A DNA stretch of 40,014 nucleotides, taken from the NCBI GenBank assembly GCA_013152195.1, contig JAADGU010000012.1:1-40014 (forward strand). Direction: 5' to 3'. The notes under the pieces were generated by a model. That model worked only from the letters and a program-made list of their open reading frames with translations, did no database searches and was not told the DNA's origin. Below, piece by piece: positions 9,165 through 24,665 of the stretch; the first letter of the stretch is position 1; every line of letters starts with the position of its first letter. Source of the DNA: Nitrospirota bacterium. GTDB taxonomy: Bacteria > Nitrospirota > Thermodesulfovibrionia > Thermodesulfovibrionales > JdFR-85. A program made the translations under genes and the position numbers.

Positions 9165-10033
9165 TGGGGCTGAATTCCGGCAGGGTGAGGCCTGCAGATG
9201 CCATTACTGTAATCTTTGTCGCGCTCTTTGCCCTGTTGACCGTGATTTATTACGGCTCTATTGAATCTGCCGATAAACTGCTTGTTACATATATCTCGTT
9301 GCTGTTCATTCAATTGATCCTTATCAGGTATGCTCCTGAACGCGGGTTCTGGAAATTATTTCATGACATTGTCTTTCCTGTGATAGCCGTGTTCCTTGCA
9401 TTTGACAGCATGACAGAGCTCGTGCCGGGAGTAAACCCCGGGGATATTGATTACCTGCTCATACGGGCGGACTACTGGTTATTGGGGGGCTACCCCACGG
9501 TCTGGCTTGAAAGGGTGGTGAATCCCTATCTTACAGAGATACTGCAGTTGGCCTATACAAGCTATTATTTTCTTCCGGTTATTCTCGGGATCGTCCTCAG
9601 GATAAAGAAGAAAGAGACCGAGTTCAATGACGGCCTGGTCTTTATTCTCCTCTGCTTTTATCTGTCCTACGTCGGATACGTACTCTTTCCTGCACTTGGT
9701 CCGAGGTATACGATGAACCACCTCCAGTCAATTCCCCTTGAGGGCAAGCTGCTTTTTGAGAAGATATACGGTATACTCAATAGCATTGAAGGCATAAAGA
9801 GGGACGCCTTTCCAAGCGGTCACACAGCAGTAACCCTGGTAGTTCTGCACCTTGCATTCCGTTATGAAAAGAGGCTTTTTTATATCTATCTGCCGATAAC
9901 ACTCCTGCTCTTGTTTGCTACAGTCTATTGCCGGTATCACTATGTTGTGGATGTACTGGGGGGAATTGTACTGTATGTGATAACCATGATATCCGGGCAA
10001 TGGTTTATCAGGTCCTTCCGTAAATTCAGTTAA
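9164..10033 (+). CDS. PAP2-superfamily membrane phosphatase
   Basis: Multi-TM. KRDAFPSGHTAVT and CRYHYVVDVLGG match PAP2 motifs 2 and 3. ATG 9164 overlaps the upstream stop (TAATG). The 9086 start in the ORF track lies inside the upstream gene. Confidence 0.75.
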   Translation: MGLNSGRVRPADAITVIFVALFALLTVIYYGSIESADKLLVTYISLLFIQLILIRYAPERGFWKLFHDIVFPVIAVFLAFDSMTELVPGVNPGDIDYLLIRADYWLLGGYPTVWLERVVNPYLTEILQLAYTSYYFLPVILGIVLRIKKKETEFNDGLVFILLCFYLSYVGYVLFPALGPRYTMNHLQSIPLEGKLLFEKIYGILNSIEGIKRDAFPSGHTAVTLVVLHLAFRYEKRLFYIYLPITLLLLFATVYCRYHYVVDVLGGIVLYVITMISGQWFIRSFRKFS

Positions 10034-10870: not shown

Positions 10871-10903
10871 AGTAAAAAGTGGATTCAGAGATGAACGGTT
10901 GTT

Positions 10904-11035
10904 GGAAACGATAAGATAGAGTCTTCACTCATTCTCGATGGACATCGTGTCCATCTCCGAGGGAATTTCACAATTCACCATCCGGGTGAATTTACTGCGA
11001 AATTAAAACCGTTCAGACTCTATCATATCGCTTCC
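10904..11035. repeat. structured intergenic element, copy 1 (21-bp closing stem, two inner stem-loops)
   Basis: Shares the blocks ATAGAGT, TTCACTCATTCTCG, CTCCGAGG, AATTT, TCACCATCCGGGTGA, AAACCGTTCA and ACTCTAT, in the same order, with 22286-22435. The stems are kept by compensatory changes (see findings). Confidence 0.75.
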
Positions 11036-11168
11036 TTCCCTTGCGAGAGACTTTTTGTCGTTGTATTTGCGTAAAACATAACCGGAGTTATGGAGAGCTG
11101 GAGAATTGGATTTTTCATTGCTCCAATACTCCAATGCCCCATTACTCCATAAAGACTCAGGAGGTATC

Positions 11169-12953
11169 ATGTACAGAGACAGGAATTGCGGAGAGGTTGG
11201 AGAGGCTGACATTGGTAAGGAACTTACCCTTTCGGGCTGGGTCTTCAGGAGACGTGACCATGGGGGGCTGATATTTGTTGACCTGAGGGACAGGAGCGGC
11301 CTTGTGCAGGTGGTATTCAGTCCGGACGTCTCTTCAGAGGCCCATGAGTCAGCCCATCTGCTCCGTTCAGAGTTTGTCATAAAGGTGAGGGGTAAGGTGA
11401 GCAGAAGACCTGAGGGTACGGAGAACCCCGATATCCCGACCGGTGCAGTTGAGCTCTATGCTGAGGAGTTGAATATATTGAGCAGGTCCGAGACACTGCC
11501 TTTTGTGCTGGAAGAGGCAGCGGATGTGTCCGAGTCCCTGAGGTTCAAGTACCGCTATCTCGACCTCAGGAGACAGGAGATGCAGGGGAATCTTGTATTC
11601 AGGCACAGGGTTACAAAGCTCATGCGCGACTATCTTGACAGAGAGGGTTTTATCGAGATAGAGACCCCCATGCTTACAAAGTCAACCCCTGAGGGTGCAA
11701 GGGACTATCTGGTGCCGAGCCGTCTCAATCCGGGCCAATTCTACGCCCTGCCGCAGTCCCCTCAACTCTTCAAGCAGATCCTGATGATGTCAGGGCTTGA
11801 AAGGTATTTTCAGGTCGTAAAGTGTTTCAGGGATGAGGACCTGAGGGCGGACCGTCAGCCCGAGTTTACGCAGGTTGATATGGAGATGTCATTTGTTGAG
11901 CCCGATGATGTGATCTCGGCGATTGAAGGGATGTTGTCCCACCTCTTTAAGGAGACCCTTGGGGTTGAGATAGAGACCCCCATGCTGCGTCTCTCTTACA
12001 GGGATGCAATGGAGCGTTTCGGCTCTGACAAGCCTGATCTCAGGTTTGGCCTGGAGCTCAGGGAGATGGGTGACCTTGCCCGGGAGGGAAGCTTTAAGGT
12101 CTTCCTCTCTGCCCTTGACTCAGGCGGCAGGGTAAAGGCCGTGTGCGGCAAGGGGATGGCCGGGCTCTCAAGAAAGGAGATGGACCTGCTGACGGAAGAG
12201 GTGCAGTCCTTTGGAGCAAAGGGGCTGGCATGGATAAAGATTAAAGACGGGTTTGAATCACCCATAGCGAAGTTTTTCCCTGAAAATGTCCTGAAGGAGA
12301 TGGCCCTGAGGCTTGAGGCAGAGGAGGGCGATATAATGCTCTTTGTGGCAGACAGGGAGGACGTGGTGCTTGATGTCCTTGGCAGGCTGAGGCTTGAGAT
12401 AGCAAGGAGGCAGGGCCTTGTCTCTGATGGCTTCAGGTTTCTCTGGGTTGTCGATTACCCACTGCTTGAGTGGGATGATGAAGGCAACAGGTTTCAGGCA
12501 ATGCACCATCCCTTTACATCACCCGCAGATGCCGATATGGAGAGGATGCTTGGAGAGGACATAAATGATGACCGCAATGGGCTGGCTTCTCTCAGGGCAA
12601 AGGCATATGATATAGTGCTTAACGGTAATGAGATCGGTGGCGGCAGTATACGTATTCACAACCCGGAGGTCCAGAGCAGGATGTTTGATGTCCTCGGGAT
12701 ATCAGAGGAAGAGGCAAGGATGAAATTCGGTTTTCTCCTTGATGCCCTTCGCTTTGGCGCTCCTCCTCACGGGGGTATTGCCCTGGGGCTTGACAGGCTT
12801 GTAATGCTCATGGTTGGCGCAAGCTCTATCAGGGACGTTATAGCCTTTCCCAAGACACAGAAGGCCGTCTGCCTGCTCAGCGGGGCCCCCTCACCAGTGG
12901 ATGAGAGGCAGTTAAAAGACCTTCATATCAAGCTGGACGCAGTCGTGGAGTAA
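11169..12953 (+). CDS. aspS: aspartate--tRNA ligase (class IIb)
   Basis: OB-fold N-terminus [24 protein letters not shown]. Has [26 protein letters not shown] and [11 protein letters not shown] 11169 sits just after AGGAGG (11159-11164). Confidence 0.95.
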
Positions 12954-13080: not shown

Positions 13081-13713
13081 ATGAGCCTGCCCGAGACCAA
13101 AGAGAGAATCCTCGATTCTGCTGAATACCTCTTTGCCCGGAAAGGATTCCACAATACCTCACTCAGGGCCATTACCGGCCGTGCAGCGGTGAACCTGGCG
13201 GCTGTTAATTATCACTTTGGCTCCAAGGAGGCACTCCTTGAGGCTGTTTTCGAAAGGCGGCTCGTGCCGTTGAACAAGGTCCGCCGGAAAAATCTTGAAG
13301 TGGTTCGTGAAACTGCACGTCGTGAGGGGAGACTCCCTGGCGTGGAAGAGTCCCTGCGGGCCTTTATTGAGCCAACGCTTGCCTTTCGTAAATCCGGGAC
13401 AGGGGCGGAAGACTTCATTACACTGGTGGGACGGGCCATGTCCGACCCTGACGATACAGTAAGAAATGTCTTTATACGCCATATTGCACCGTTGTTTTAT
13501 ATGCTCTTTGACATCCTGCGCGAGGCATTGCCGGAGCTCTCTCCGGATATGCTCTTCTGGCGGCTTCAGTTTGCCATTGGTGCCATGGGGCATGCCATCT
13601 GCATGGCAGGAAAAAGTTATTCCTTACCTGAGGGAGTCACGCCTGTCAGTGATGTGGAGTCACTGACAGCCATGCTCCTCGACTTTGTCGTGGCAGGGAT
13701 GGAGAGAGCATGA
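13081..13713 (+). CDS. TetR/AcrR-family transcriptional regulator
   Basis: 210 aa. N-terminal HTH: FARKGFHNTSLRAITGRAAVNLAAVNYHFGSKEAL. First gene of the efflux operon. Confidence 0.9.
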   Translation: MSLPETKERILDSAEYLFARKGFHNTSLRAITGRAAVNLAAVNYHFGSKEALLEAVFERRLVPLNKVRRKNLEVVRETARREGRLPGVEESLRAFIEPTLAFRKSGTGAEDFITLVGRAMSDPDDTVRNVFIRHIAPLFYMLFDILREALPELSPDMLFWRLQFAIGAMGHAICMAGKSYSLPEGVTPVSDVESLTAMLLDFVVAGMERA

Positions 13714-15131
13714 AGGTATGGAGTATAAAGACACCTCTTTTTGTTTTTATAATAATGCTGTCAGCCGGTTGCGCTGTGCACAGCCCCCAGTCTGTATCGC
13801 CCCCGCTCCCTGTTCCGGCATCGTTCAGCGAACAAAACAGCCTTCCGGTGGAGCGCTGGTGGGAAGCCTTTGGGGATGCAGACTTGAATCTCCTCATGGA
13901 GGAGGCCTTTTCAGGTAATCCCGACCTGATGCAGGCATATGAGCGTTTTGAGCAGAGCCGGGCCATATACCGCAGCACCACGGCTGCCCGAAGGCCCTCT
14001 ATTGACCTTCAGGGACAGTGGAGCAGGGAGGATACCCCAAGCTTTTTCGGCAACAACACCGGCAACAGTTATATCCTGTCCCTGGCAGCAGGCTTTGAGC
14101 TGGACCTCTGGCAAAAGCTCAAATCCCGTAGCATGGCTGCCGGTCTTGATATGGAGGCACTCCGTGAAGAGATCAAGACCCTCTACATCAGCCTTTCCGC
14201 CCGGATTGCCGACCTTTATTATCTGGCGGCAGAGCAGCGTGCCCAGCTAAAACTGACGGAACAGACCATTAACTCCTATACAGATATCCTGTCACTGGTT
14301 GAAGGGCGTTACCGGCAGGGGCTGGTACCCGCACTTGATGTTTACCAGGCCCGGCAGAACCTTTTCAGGGTCAGGGCCCGCAGGGCTGTTCTTGAGTCTT
14401 CGCTGAGGGTGACGGAGCACGCCCTCTCTGTTGCCCTGGGCCATTATCCCGACAATAAAACAACGGGTGGTCTGATTGAATTGCCTGAGACTCCTGCAGC
14501 CTTCCCTTCAGGTCTCCCCTCAGAGCTTCTTTCACGGCGTCCTGATGTCCGTGCAGCCTTTTTACGCCTCAAGGCGAGTGACGCCAGGGTGGCGGTGGCT
14601 GTTGCCGAGCGTTTTCCCTCTTTTAACCTGCTTGGCAGTTACGGCACATCAAGCTTTGTTTTCAGTACAGGTGACATTGTCGGGAGTTTCTGGAAGGTCC
14701 TTGTAAACCTGTCACAGCCGTTACTGGATGGTGGCAGGCGCAGCGCAGAGGTGGACCGTTCAAGGGCCGTGTTCCGTGAAAACCTTGCCCACTACCATAA
14801 GGCCGTCTTAAAAGCATTCCAGGAAGTGGAGGATGCCCTGGTAAGGAACCGCACTTCTGAAGAGCGTATCACGCAGTTGCAGGAGCAGGCTGAGGCGGCA
14901 GGGTCGGCACTGCGCCTTTCGCAGGAGCGCTATATGCAGGGTCTTTCCGGATATCTTCCGGTACTGATTGCCCAGACACTCTATTTTGATACGCAGAGTC
15001 AACTCCTGACGGCCCGCCGCCAGCTTATATCCGACCGTGTCACCCTGGCAAGGGCACTCGGAGGGGAATGGATGGAGCATGAAATACAGGAGCGCTTGAC
15101 CGTCAATAATCATAAAGGAGGGGGCTCATGA
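13710..15131 (+). CDS. efflux outer-membrane factor lipoprotein (NodT/TolC family)
   Basis: Signal peptide with lipobox LSAGC. Two-repeat OMF pattern. ATGA overlaps with both neighbours. Confidence 0.88.
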   Translation: MKVWSIKTPLFVFIIMLSAGCAVHSPQSVSPPLPVPASFSEQNSLPVERWWEAFGDADLNLLMEEAFSGNPDLMQAYERFEQSRAIYRSTTAARRPSIDLQGQWSREDTPSFFGNNTGNSYILSLAAGFELDLWQKLKSRSMAAGLDMEALREEIKTLYISLSARIADLYYLAAEQRAQLKLTEQTINSYTDILSLVEGRYRQGLVPALDVYQARQNLFRVRARRAVLESSLRVTEHALSVALGHYPDNKTTGGLIELPETPAAFPSGLPSELLSRRPDVRAAFLRLKASDARVAVAVAERFPSFNLLGSYGTSSFVFSTGDIVGSFWKVLVNLSQPLLDGGRRSAEVDRSRAVFRENLAHYHKAVLKAFQEVEDALVRNRTSEERITQLQEQAEAAGSALRLSQERYMQGLSGYLPVLIAQTLYFDTQSQLLTARRQLISDRVTLARALGGEWMEHEIQERLTVNNHKGGGS

Positions 15132-22183: not shown

Positions 22184-22216
22184 CTTTCCCTCCTCCTGAC
22201 TTGTTTATCTATTTCA

Positions 22217-22245
22217 ATCATAGCACACACTTTGGCTGATGACAA
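22217..22245 (-). promoter_or_regulatory. candidate sigma70 promoter of the usp-V4R-GGDEF operon
   Basis: On the minus strand: TTGTCA (22245-22240), 17-nt spacer, TATGAT (22222-22217). It lies about 35 nt upstream of the usp ATG, which has a GGAGGAGGG SD. Confidence 0.45.
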
Positions 22246-22285
22246 GAAGCGCATGGCTATATATATGTCGTTGCAAGGCTATATA

Positions 22286-22435
22286 GCTGGAAAGGGAGAC
22301 GGGTATAGAGTTTTCACTCATTCTCGTTCCGGCGTCCGGCCGGGACTCCGAGGAATTTATCACGTCTCACCATCCGGGTGAGACAAAAGTGATAATTGAA
22401 ACCGTTCAAACTCTATACCCGTCTCCCTTTCCAGC
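22286..22435. repeat. structured intergenic element, copy 2 (perfect 28-bp closing stem)
   Basis: 22286-22313 is the exact reverse complement of 22408-22435. The interior is collinear with copy 1 and has the same conserved blocks. Confidence 0.8.
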
Positions 22436-22675
22436 AGTTGAGATGTTTTCTATCGACAACCCCGGGGATAGAGTGAAAAGGTTTTTAAACATGATCCCCT
22501 TGTATGTCTGTTTCCTGTGAAGCATTAAGCTATTGAAAATCAAGGGATATGGTATCATTATACTCCTCGCTATATTTCGTTTCTGCTTGCCGGGGCAGGG
22601 TTATTGAACCGGCAAACAAATAAACAGTTTCAAGCGGGTTAAAAGTTTCTTGTACAAACAGAAAAAACGATATAT

Positions 22676-22700
22676 GTCATTCTGAATTTATTTCAGAATC
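22676..22700. repeat. GTCATTC...GAATC-type hairpin
   Basis: GTCATTCTGAATTTATTTCAGAATC: 8-bp stem (22679-22686 with 22692-22699) and a 5-nt loop, 40 nt upstream of mnmA. Confidence 0.5.
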
Positions 22701-22739
22701 TCTATTGTCTGGTTACACCATAGAAAGAGGGTAAGGAAA

Positions 22740-23795
22740 ATGGCAAAGGTAGTGGTTGGAATGAGCGGAGGAGTGGATTCCTCTGTTACGGCATATTTGC
22801 TCAAAGAGCAGGGCCATGAAGTAGCAGGGATCAGCTTTATGCTGTGGGAGGCCCGGGAGAGGACGGACTTCAGGACGTGTTGTTCCCTTGAGGCAATAAA
22901 CGGGGCGGCTGAGACGGCAAAGGCACTCGGAATTACTCACAGGGTGATTGATGTCAGGGGGGATTTTATAGATAAGGTCATAGAGCCGTTTGTCGATGGT
23001 TATCTGCACGGAATAACACCAAATCCCTGTGTGCTCTGTAATCTCCATATCAAGTTCCCTTATCTTCTGAAAGAGGCCGAGAGAATCGGCGCTGAATTTA
23101 TTTCCACCGGGCATTATGCAAGGGTGGAGAGGGTTGACGGGCATTGTCTCCTGAAAAAAGGGGTTGATCCGGTCAAGGACCAGACGTATTTTCTTTATGT
23201 GCTGAACCGGGACACCCTGTCCAGGCTGCTCTTCCCCCTGGGACTTTACACAAAAGAGAGTGTGAGGGAGATTGCAAGGGGACTGAAACTCCCTGCTGCG
23301 CAAAGACCCGAGAGTGTGGAGATATGCTTTATCCCGGAAGGTGACTATCCGTCTTTTATCAGCAATCTCGTTCCCGAAGCAGTAAAACCAGGCCCGGTTA
23401 TAGGGCCTGAAGGCAATGTGCTGGGTACGCATAAGGGGATATTTAATTATACCGTGGGACAGAGGCGGGGGCTTAATATCTCTTCTGCCGAACCACTCTA
23501 TGTGATAAAGATAGACCCTGAAAACAATGCAATTCATGTGGGGTCAAGGGAGATGGCATTTAAAAGGGAGATGAAGGTGGGGGATTTGAACTGGATTGCT
23601 CCGCCTGTTAACAGGGTAACGGCAAAGATCCGCTCCATGATGAGGGATGAGGCAGCAGTGCTCTTAATGGAAGAGAGCGGGGATATGGTAAAACTGGTCT
23701 TTGACGAACCCCAGTGGGCTCCTGCCCCCGGGCAGAATGCCGTCTTTTACAGAGGTGATGTGGTGCTTGGCGGAGGAATCATTCAGCGGGATTAA
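22740..23795 (+). CDS. mnmA: tRNA-specific 2-thiouridylase
   Basis: PP-loop VVVGMSGGVDSSV, NPCVLCN, GHYAR and VKDQTYFL. 351 aa. Confidence 0.95.
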   Translation: MAKVVVGMSGGVDSSVTAYLLKEQGHEVAGISFMLWEARERTDFRTCCSLEAINGAAETAKALGITHRVIDVRGDFIDKVIEPFVDGYLHGITPNPCVLCNLHIKFPYLLKEAERIGAEFISTGHYARVERVDGHCLLKKGVDPVKDQTYFLYVLNRDTLSRLLFPLGLYTKESVREIARGLKLPAAQRPESVEICFIPEGDYPSFISNLVPEAVKPGPVIGPEGNVLGTHKGIFNYTVGQRRGLNISSAEPLYVIKIDPENNAIHVGSREMAFKREMKVGDLNWIAPPVNRVTAKIRSMMRDEAAVLLMEESGDMVKLVFDEPQWAPAPGQNAVFYRGDVVLGGGIIQRD

Positions 23796-23801
23796 ATAGA
23801 A

Positions 23802-23938
23802 TCTGTGTATAAACATCACAATTGAGCCGTCATTCCCGCAGTCTGTTGAGCGGGAATCCAGTCTTTGCAGTGAGTTCTGGATACCCCGAACGTTTTCGGG
23901 ACATGACTAAAATAAAAAAACATTAGTTTATACACAGA
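23802..23938. repeat. nested palindromic element between convergent mnmA and crp (13-bp outer inverted repeat enclosing three hairpins)
   Basis: TCTGTGTATAAAC (23802-23814) pairs with GTTTATACACAGA (23926-23938). Inner hairpins: 23832-23857 (8 bp, ATTCCCGC/GCGGGAAT), 23858-23880 (4 bp; a fifth pair would need T23857, which closes the first hairpin) and 23885-23900 (6 bp). Confidence 0.7.
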
Positions 23939-23954
23939 CATTAAATAAGTGCAC

Positions 23955-24665
23955 TTAATCTGTAAGCTCATCAATATCTTCAAACAGCTTGGGAGATAAC
24001 ATAAACAGATCCCCGTTTTCAGTTATAAGATTACCTGACACGAGCCTTTTTATAACTTTCGAGATGGATTCCCTTGATGCCCCGATTCTCTCTGCAATTT
24101 CCTTATGTGTTCGTTTCTTGATCAGGTAGAAGCCGTTTTTTTTCTTCTTCCCCTCGTCTTTTATAAGCTTCTTGAATAACTTGACCAATCTTTGATGGAC
24201 AGCAAGGAAGGCAAGACTTTCCTCCCTTTCGGTTGCATTTCTCAGTCTCTGCACAAGAGACTTCAGAAGATCGATTGCAATCTCGGGGTCCTCTTTAATT
24301 GCATCAAGAAACCTGTTTCTCTCTAAAACTGCAAAGATTGAATCCTCTTCTGCTGTGACTGAAGCAGAACGCGGATTACCATCAATAAGGCTCATTTCCC
24401 CAAAAAAATCACCCGGGTTGAGATCTGTCAGTACAAACTCGTCTCCCTCCTCGCTCAACAGGGTTACTTTGACCTTGCCCTCAAGAATTATGTACATATC
24501 GGTGCTCTTGTCAGTCTGATAAAATACCGTTTCTCCTGCACGAAAAGTATGAATGGTAAAGTCATTAATTATCTGCTCCACACGTTTATCCGAAAGATTT
24601 CTGAATGCAGGAATTTCCTTCAGGAACTTCCCGACAAGAAGCTTGTCCTTTTCTTTTAAGATCAT
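23955..24665 (-). CDS. Crp/Fnr-family cyclic-nucleotide-binding transcriptional regulator
   Basis: cNMP-binding barrel (FFGEMSLIDGNPRSASVTA) and a C-terminal HTH (THKEIAERIGASRESISKVIKRL). Confidence 0.9.
   Translation of the reverse strand: MILKEKDKLLVGKFLKEIPAFRNLSDKRVEQIINDFTIHTFRAGETVFYQTDKSTDMYIILEGKVKVTLLSEEGDEFVLTDLNPGDFFGEMSLIDGNPRSASVTAEEDSIFAVLERNRFLDAIKEDPEIAIDLLKSLVQRLRNATEREESLAFLAVHQRLVKLFKKLIKDEGKKKKNGFYLIKKRTHKEIAERIGASRESISKVIKRLVSGNLITENGDLFMLSPKLFEDIDELTD

Follow-up and report, generated by a model that had tools for sequence, protein, structure and literature searches.

We analysed a 40,014-nt stretch of DNA from a Nitrospirota bacterium of the class Thermodesulfovibrionia (GenBank assembly GCA_013152195.1, contig JAADGU010000012.1), which is called the window below. 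Its subject is an element with a long closing stem in the spacer upstream of mnmA (copy 2), of which a second copy (copy 1) is located upstream of aspS. Copy 2 is probably a member of a high-copy family of ~195-bp non-autonomous transposable elements, that is, of miniature inverted-repeat transposable elements (MITEs), in Thermodesulfovibrionia. This assignment was made because the family showed small size, terminal inverted repeats (TIRs), target duplications, no transposase inside, many copies and a long stem-loop. These are the features of bacterial MITEs listed by Delihas 2011 (PMC3184786). The units were smaller than ~400 bp, the copies were numerous and dispersed, and they were present or absent at orthologous sites. 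The ~195-bp repeat family is previously undescribed, and its kind, a structured MITE, is already known. A literature search for a repeat of Thermodesulfovibrio or Nitrospirota returned nothing relevant.

Copy number and distribution

One genome per GTDB species was scanned for short cores made of three conserved strands (TCATTCTCG...CCGAGG...AACCGTT). The scan returned at least 109 loci, which are numbered with the letter L below, and ~60 true copies were found among the matches listed. These true copies belonged to Nitrospirae/Nitrospirota, Thermodesulfovibrio(nia) or unclassified metagenome-assembled genomes (MAGs), with the exception of one contig labelled Caldisericaceae. The remaining matches among those listed were chance matches in unrelated taxa and had no closing stem. 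A covariance model (R1) was built from 58 copies and run over 428 kb of the Nitrospirota/Thermodesulfovibrionia loci. It identified 75 copies, at least 16 of which were within one MAG. An earlier note, made from the letters of the window, had proposed that the copies be counted, and the count showed that the element was not limited to two copies. Fourteen of the R1 copies were 200 nt or less from a contig end, a pattern often seen for repeats that interrupt assemblies. Tandem pairs of copies were located in L019 and L106. The density was ~1 copy per 36 kb when the copy that had brought each locus in was left out. From this density and from the two copies in the 40-kb contig, we infer that the copy number per genome is between some tens and about a hundred. 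As far as seen, the family was confined to Nitrospirota of the class Thermodesulfovibrionia.

Known RNA families gave no match. Rfam 15 was run on the window, and nothing reached the gathering thresholds. When copy 2, one full-length copy and one divergent copy were scanned permissively on either strand, only spurious miRNA-hairpin matches far under threshold resulted. The families without a match included hammerhead, twister, twister-sister, pistol, hatchet, HDV-like, HEARO/omega RNAs, group II intron domains, T-box and 5S. Resemblances to a hammerhead, to 5S RNA and to a tRNA T-loop were dropped, since the motifs did not fit and no model matched. In viral contigs, the two-block pattern gave 11 matches, all by chance, and the repeat family was not found in plasmid and phage collections.

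Secondary structure and covariation

Every copy consisted of a closing stem (P1), two hairpins (P2 and P3) and near-invariant junction strands. P1 was ~20 bp in essentially every copy, with a range of roughly 13-30, and the long stem is therefore a feature of the family. In copy 2, as the earlier note had described, the two 28-nt arms of P1 were perfectly complementary. They were 94 nt apart, enclosed a ~110-nt core that recurs in copy 1, and formed the best inverted repeat of the entire window. The fold of the 150-nt unit of copy 2 had an energy of -90.2 kcal/mol, compared with -39.9 +/- 4.0 for dinucleotide shuffles (z = -12.7; 0/200).

Base pairing was maintained while the sequences of the helices changed. 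In the model-based alignment, 93.1% of the cells were paired, and 32 of the 36 modelled pairs showed double-sided changes. The covariation score was 0.654, whereas shuffles gave 0.191 (0/500 reached the observed score) and slid-partner controls at most 0.116. Double-sided changes were found in all 20 modelled pairs of P1, and the upper-stem pairs of P2 covaried. Apart from the junction strands, copies 1 and 2 share only the 9 innermost bp of the stem (ATAGAGTyT/ArACTCTAT), which confirmed the comparison made in the earlier note. Of the 35 predicted pairs in their P1, P2 and P3 helices, 7 differed by compensatory changes. The junction strands TTCAC-TCATTCTCG, CTCCGAGG and AAACCGTTCA were near-invariant; this was partly due to ascertainment, yet they were conserved also in the 11 copies found by the model alone. 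These results suggested selection on a folded single strand, which may be aided by correction of the inverted repeat within the element. Most likely, the conserved junction nucleotides would serve the element itself, as a module for binding or structure.

A second, outer inverted repeat was located beyond P1 in subfamilies A (the copy-1 type) and C, where ..CCnAAATCCAGCGATAAA.. was paired with ..TTTATCGCTGGATTTnGG.., and this repeat provides the TIRs. The order of the unit was thus outer TIRs, a short asymmetric internal loop, a P1 of 20-28 bp and a conserved three-way junction with two variable hairpins. The interior was wholly accounted for by helices, with no mobility gene inside. The full-length unit L072:5040-5275 folded into an almost fully paired rod consisting of a ~25 bp outer stem, a 21 bp P1 and the three-way junction (-112 kcal/mol, z = -14), and either single strand of the full unit folds into such a rod. 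A search of 516 kb for split, 'autonomous' copies with a large insert in a variable arm yielded none, and the one candidate obtained was a truncated copy. The outer repeat was degenerate in copy 1 and not convincing in copy 2.

The earlier note had regarded the outer part of the copy 2 stem as unique to this copy. This holds within the window only, since the outer 19 bp were common to the subfamily members L015, L017 and L050 and to the ortholog in L121. This subfamily had the longest P1 of the family, 24-28 bp. The note had proposed, as one of two readings, a ~110-nt element with 9-bp terminal repeats that inserts into the loops of pre-existing palindromes such as terminators or REP-like hairpins. 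The stems of the two window copies differ beyond the shared 9 bp and are still paired in both, as this proposal would predict. However, the outer stem was homologous among subfamily copies in different genomes and at different loci, and a P1 of ~20 bp occurred family-wide. In addition, the empty site in L051, described below, had no palindrome, and the outer stems belonged to the 237-nt insertion at that site. Insertion into palindromes is thus contradicted and very improbable. Hairpin targeting by a class C group II intron was rejected on the same grounds, namely the empty site without a palindrome, stems that are part of the element and no match to an intron model.

The note had also described an inverted end fragment downstream of the stem. 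The match is real, as GAGTGAAAA (22471-22479) is the reverse complement of TTTTCACTC (22311-22319). However, it was at the level of chance, since 179 of 2000 shuffles also gave inverted matches of 9 nt or longer when the element was compared with its +/-120-nt flanks. The fragment belongs to a small hairpin that covaries in the L121 ortholog.

Several copies showed unusual outer parts. In L089 (51-194), L019 (913-1056) and L052 (106-249), the core had the usual orientation and the unequal outer arms were swapped and inverted (short arm CCAAATCCAGCGATAAAG, long arm ..CTTACAGCTGGATTTGG). It thus seemed that the core had been turned around between its arms, which recombination across the 20-bp P1 would be expected to produce. 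In L110 (7380-7560 and 7704-7830, minus strand), the copy was flanked by minisatellite-like tandem runs of TTTAGAATTTAGG-like units, and TTTAGAATTTAGG is the terminal motif of the inverted repeat of the element. In L079 (4087-4260), ~175 nt of other hairpin-rich sequence (e.g. GTCATTCCGAACTCGTTTCGGAATTTCGGGAAATACCGAAG) lay upstream of the element in the same enlarged spacer, and it may be a second, different repeat family.

Termini, target duplications and empty sites

Target-site duplications (TSDs) were examined in 10 copies whose termini were fixed by the conserved end motif, with mismatched partners as controls. The termini were CCnAAATCCAG...CTGGATTTnGG, and the units were 192-204 bp long. 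Direct repeats of at least 4 bp were found immediately outside both ends in 7 of the 10 copies, compared with 17.8% of the controls (p = 4e-4). For repeats of at least 5 bp, the values were 4 of 10 and 6.7% (p = 0.003). The flanking repeats were AT-rich and 4-6 bp long (CTTAAG, TTTAG, TCAAA, ATAAA, TTAA, AAGT and TTAA). Outer-repeat motifs away from copies occurred at the chance rate only.

Filled and empty sites were found in relatives. The clearest pair was L062 (filled) and L051 (empty), with flanks ~90% identical. In L051, the stop codon was followed directly by the ribosome-binding site of the next gene. In L062, a 237-nt insertion including the outer stems was located directly after the stop codon, and AAATAC was present at both junctions. 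The duplications and empty sites for which the earlier note had suggested looking are thus present in the family.

The sites of both window copies were compared with those of relatives. At the usp-mnmA site, L121 (91% relative) carried an orthologous but rearranged copy, L122 (85% relative) carried a different sequence, and L123 (80% relative) was empty, with ~30 nt between blocks that flank ~300 nt in the window. The orthologous copies of the window and L121 differed by two compensatory double substitutions. At the rluB-aspS site, L125 (97% relative) had an intact copy (135 bits). Relics only were found in the 82-84% relatives, where L128 kept the outer arms and a CTTCGCTCACTCTCC remnant and L126 kept ATCGCTTCCTTC. 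The two genes were adjacent in the distant relative L036. From these orthologous filled, relic and empty states it follows that insertions can be old, vertically inherited and decaying by internal deletion.

In the L121 ortholog (9656-9795), P2 was wholly different, with GACAGACATCCTGTCTGTC in place of GTTCCGGCGTCCGGCCGGGAC, and the 5' arm of P3 was exchanged for a new perfect palindrome, TCCCGAAGTACTTCGGGA. These differences suggest module exchange or conversion between copies. In L122 (9715-9925), ~215 nt of unrelated palindrome-rich sequence (e.g. CACGTGACACGTG and CCGAGGCCCTCGG) stood in place of copy 2, and the element model gave no match at this site. This sequence may derive from a decayed copy or from another insertion.

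Genomic context and orientation

The copies were dispersed in intergenic DNA, often directly 3' of a stop codon and separating genes that adjoin each other in relatives. The proteins encoded downstream of 48 copies belonged to 79 Pfam families, none of which occurred more than twice. In a Pfam scan, 128 further neighbours proved to be ordinary proteins of housekeeping function, and no transposase, reverse transcriptase, integrase or recombinase recurred among them. The positions of the two window copies, both 5' of tRNA-related genes (aspS and mnmA) and on the same strand, would fit a riboswitch or leader RNA for such genes. However, the downstream genes were heterogeneous, and the association is therefore a coincidence, as the earlier note had allowed. 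Close relatives lacked the element upstream of the same genes, the conserved promoter-like box of mnmA was downstream of copy 2, and copies also occurred antisense (11 cases) and directly after stop codons. A leader function for tRNA-related genes can be practically discounted.

The orientation of the copies was biased. The downstream gene was co-oriented with the plus strand of the model in 49 of 64 cases. Between co-oriented genes, 32 placements were sense and 11 antisense (3:1), and 11 spacers were divergent compared with 2 convergent ones. In L064 (1-370 and 4590-4970), a ~350-bp segment was present twice in inverted orientation (93-99% identical) and contained the element with ~110 nt upstream and ~100 nt downstream. 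There were two convergent groups of glycogen-metabolism genes, each with one of the segments at its 5' side, and the shared upstream part had a TTGACT...TAATAAT promoter-like stretch. A composite transposon was rejected for this pair, because the enclosed genes were those of glycogen metabolism and no transposase was present.

Strand asymmetry

The mismatches in P1 were strongly asymmetric, with 85 A.C, 25 G.U and 33 other mismatches. In 62 of 71 copies, the complementary (minus) strand gave the more stable fold, with a mean advantage of 5.3 kcal/mol (p = 4e-11). The same comparison restricted to P1 favoured the minus strand in 57 copies and the plus strand in 12. The bias was present in all context classes and did not flip in copies antisense to their neighbours. 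When private single-step changes only were counted, 28 A.C, 8 G.U and 10 other mismatches were obtained (p = 0.001). On the plus strand, the private changes were 17 G>A and 11 T>C, compared with 3 C>T and 5 A>G. Read on the minus strand, the sequence of the conserved junction would give tandem G.A/A.G mismatches. G.U pairs may be tolerated on the minus strand because of a need for it to fold. A second possibility is that deamination acts preferentially on this strand, since it is often single-stranded or non-template. If a function belongs to one strand only, that strand is the minus one, which is complementary to mnmA and aspS, and the mismatch spectrum would indicate that it is the folding or the non-template one. 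The better-folding strand was antisense to most neighbouring genes, which conflicts with the bias in gene orientation.

These results bear on the first reading of the earlier note, an RNA whose P1 helix is under selection. The pairing stood, with double-sided changes throughout P1; the strand that the note had assumed did not, since its complement folds better. In a broader form, the element would be primarily a functional structured RNA, with dispersal as a secondary trait. It might be a small RNA gene present in many copies, or act in cis within mRNAs as a site for RNase III or other processing, as a stabiliser or as a three-way junction bound by protein. This explanation overlaps with the MITE assignment. 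It would account for near-invariant junction strands among covarying helices, for compensatory substitutions in situ in orthologous copies, for the orientation bias with its excess of divergent spacers, and for the better folding of one strand with its excess of private A.C mismatches. The tandem G.A/A.G mismatches of the minus strand are a common RNA motif. However, no consistent promoter or terminator was found, and copy 2 seemingly lies outside both neighbouring transcripts. The two orientation signals conflict, no Rfam family matched on either strand, and inverted repeats can also be kept paired by correction at the DNA level. Many copies were visibly decaying, such as copy 1 with its P1 mismatches, the rearranged copy of L121 and the relics of L126 and L128. 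A primarily functional RNA is therefore a possible but tentative explanation.

Some candidates for a function of the element were not retained. CsrA-type GGA loops were dropped, as not all copies of the divergent clade have them. The outer repeat was also considered as a site of sigma-28 or extended -10 promoters, but it had no consistent -35. A role as an intrinsic terminator was dropped, as no terminator was predicted.

Position and parts of copy 2

Copy 2 was flanked by usp (minus strand) and mnmA (plus strand) in a 556-nt spacer (22184-22739), ~305 nt from mnmA, and both values agreed with the earlier note. In a consensus scan, the usp promoter fell at 22245-22217 (minus strand). Downstream of copy 2 and ahead of mnmA, there was a promoter-like box (TTGAAA-N17-CATTAT, 22533-22561) that is kept in relatives. 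Because these predicted promoters lie on either side, copy 2 appears to be located between two divergent promoters and in neither leader. A terminator scan around copy 2 predicted none. The outer ends of copy 2 were uncertain (TGTCG...CGACA), and its length was in keeping with the other subfamilies, whose units have 192-204 bp.

The -35-like TTGAAA of the mnmA box sits in sequence that is missing from the empty-site relative L123, and the -10 region (TGGTATCATTAT) was conserved in all relatives. Because of the position of the TTGAAA, the insertion may have contributed part of the present mnmA promoter. Directly 5' of the copy 2 stem, the window (22251-22285) had a direct repeat, GCATGGCTATATA / GCAAGGCTATATA, with a 22 nt spacing, and the L121 ortholog had the second one only. 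The hairpin downstream of the stem (Table 1) was absent from other subfamily-B copies.

The scan of the window with the covariance model, with filters off, gave exactly two copies. Their scores were 141 and 136 bits on the plus strand, compared with 25 and 21 on the minus strand. Copy 1 was located between an rluB-like pseudouridine synthase gene and aspS.

Table 1. Coordinates of the two element copies and their parts in the window
Feature	Position	Strand	Basis and remarks
Copy 2, approximate full unit, subfamily B	22266..22458		Homology with L015, L050, L017 and L121, reaching ~20 nt 5' and ~25 nt 3' of P1
P1 5' arm (inner inverted repeat, 28 nt; GCTGGAAAGGGAGACGGGTATAGAGTTT)	22286..22313	+	100% complementary to 22408-22435; family-wide P1 ~20 bp, covariation in all 20 modelled pairs
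Junction strand J1/2, within the conserved block TTCAC-TCATTCTCG that runs into the base of P2	22314..22320	+	Near-invariant over 58-75 copies, including those found by the covariance model only
P2 hairpin	22321..22354	+	Fold; base CTCG/CGAG invariant, upper stem variable and covarying; different hairpin in the L121 ortholog
P3 long hairpin, variable arm	22357..22395	+	Fold; 6/6 modelled pairs covary; length and sequence differ widely among subfamilies
Junction strand J3/1 (AATTGAAACCGTTCA block)	22396..22407	+	AAACCGTTCA near-invariant
P1 3' arm	22408..22435	+	Complementarity to the 5' arm; fold
Small downstream hairpin TCTATC...GATAGA, overlapping in part the probable 3' end of the copy 2 unit	22449..22472	+	Covaries in the L121 ortholog (TCAGTC...GACTGA)
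Copy 1, full unit, subfamily A, degenerate outer inverted repeat (AGTGGATTCAG...TTGTATTTGCG)	10877..11071		Homology with the better-preserved L125 ortholog (ACCGAATCCAG...CTGGATGTGGG)
Copy 1, covariance-model match	10900-11039	+	136 bits
Copy 1, P1	10905-10924 with 11015-11034		Mismatches present
Copy 1, core	10916-11024

Three further repeats were observed in the window. A perfect 20-nt direct repeat (GAGATAGAGACCCCCATGCT) was located in the aspS coding region at 11655-11674 and 11967-11986, 312 nt apart. An inverted repeat at 13456-13483 / 13717-13744 (28 nt, 82%, 233 nt between the arms) and another in the mnmA-crp spacer at 23781-23814 / 23926-23959 (34 nt, 71%, 111 nt apart) gave no match to the element model.

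Mobilisation and comparison with known elements

We propose that a DDE transposase acting in trans would mobilise the element by recognising the outer repeats. The ends (CCTAAATTCAG...) and the length of the duplication resemble those of IS1380-family elements such as ISEcp1. ISEcp1 has the left and right inverted repeats (IRL and IRR) CCTAGATTCTACGT and ACGTGGAATTTAGG and duplications of 4-5 bp (PMC7864471). The ends of both start with CC, and both have direct repeats of 4-5 bp that are often AT-rich. The reverse complement of the ISEcp1 IRR, CCTAAATTCCACGT, matched the element terminus CCTAAATTCAGCGA at 11 of 14 positions, and over the element termini the agreement was 7-11 of 14. Unlike IS1380 elements, the Nitrospirota element lacks a transposase gene, and no more than ~10-14 bp are similar. 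An IS1380-type transposase with these ends was not found in the neighbouring proteins and ~0.5 Mb of loci. The IS1380-like ends are thus a lead and no demonstration.

Mobilisation as single-stranded DNA was also considered. Here an HUH (Y1) enzyme would act in trans, as for REPINs with RAYTs or for PATEs derived from IS200/IS605, and the hairpins would be recognition structures on one strand. Compensatory changes in the helices and strand-specific mismatches are what strand-specific recognition of this kind predicts. REPINs are likewise high-copy intergenic hairpin repeats, mobilised in trans and vertically persistent, and they are reported to show hairpin-preserving substitutions (PMC3116915). 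However, such systems have no TSD and no TIRs that span the unit, and both were seen in the Nitrospirota element. REPINs are doublets of REP sequences with a GTAG-type head, no target duplication and a RAYT gene; none of these was seen for the Nitrospirota element, which has a target duplication. No REP-like GTAG motif and no Y1 transposase gene was found near any copy, as judged for the gene from the neighbouring proteins. The better-folding strand would mostly be the template strand of neighbouring genes and not the expected lagging-strand template. We consider mobilisation by an HUH enzyme improbable.

The closest described analogue is bcr1 of the Bacillus cereus group (Okstad 2004 and Klevan 2007, as reviewed in Delihas 2011; PMC3184786). 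It is ~155 bp long with 5-bp direct repeats. Compensatory changes keep its closing stem and two stem-loops in a 'cruciform-like' form, and some copies lose stability. Both elements are non-autonomous intergenic repeats of ~150-200 bp with direct repeats of ~5 bp and an uneven distribution among related strains. Both have a closing stem and two independent stem-loops with compensatory changes, and individual copies lose stability in both. In contrast, bcr1 belongs to another phylum and has no known sequence relationship to the Nitrospirota element, which adds an outer inverted repeat (a ~45-bp rod), a near-invariant junction and strand-asymmetric mismatches. Transcription was shown for bcr1, whereas the Nitrospirota element is known from sequence.

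The Correia/NEMIS, ERIC, RUP and Nezha elements are also small, with TIRs, short target duplications, no transposase and high copy number. They are intergenic, often inside transcription units, and fold into a long stem-loop (PMC3184786). However, the interior of classical MITEs generally has no conserved multi-helix junction that covaries across subfamilies. In the Nitrospirota element, the TIRs vary by subfamily and the core junction is the most conserved part.

An integron attC site was considered and rejected. In attC sites, R''/R' core sites (RYYYAAC / GTTRRRY) mark the boundaries of cassettes that are arrayed beside intI. The junction GTTCA(A/G)AC has C at the first R position, and the copies were located between conserved housekeeping genes and not in cassette arrays.

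Evidence against an ordinary MITE

Several results weigh against assigning copy 2 to the MITEs, or against a plain form of that assignment. For copy 2 itself, no clear TIR or TSD could be fixed; the outer repeat of subfamily B was weak, and its outer TIRs and TSD were not definable. Base-level junctions came from one filled/empty pair only, in which L051 differs by 3 nt from the predicted target. Neither the 176 neighbouring proteins nor ~0.5 Mb of loci yielded a cognate transposase with matching ends. The earlier note had held that TIRs, TSDs and a cognate transposase would make the element an ordinary MITE, and of these only the first two were found in the loci examined. Mobilisation by a DDE or IS1380-type enzyme is thus only a proposal, and the resemblance of the ends came from a post-hoc comparison of short sequences. 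Strand-asymmetric mismatches and a 3:1 orientation bias are not predicted by a double-strand cut-and-paste model. In addition, near-invariant unpaired nucleotides with covarying helices at genus-level divergence are unexpected in the interior of an ordinary MITE.

The invariant unpaired junction and the covarying helices therefore point to an added function beyond the plain MITE model. The three-way-junction core may be a functional module on the minus strand inside the MITE, such as a protein-binding or catalytic RNA of a new type or a recognition structure in single-stranded DNA, under purifying selection locus by locus. We regard this as doubtful. Such a module would explain the invariant junction, the covariation of the helices, the mismatches that favour the minus strand and the orientation bias.

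Implications

With its covariance model, termini and target duplication, a defined repeat family is added for Thermodesulfovibrionia, which are mostly uncultured thermophilic sulfate reducers. The family accounts for many contig breaks in their MAGs and enlarges intergenic spacers within otherwise compact operons. It is expected to yield false 'riboswitch' or 'sRNA' calls in comparative screens. After bcr1 of Bacillus, it would be the second clear case of a MITE interior that behaves as a selected structured nucleic acid. If the core is active, copies within transcription units, at tens to ~100 per genome, could shape mRNA processing or expression genome-wide.

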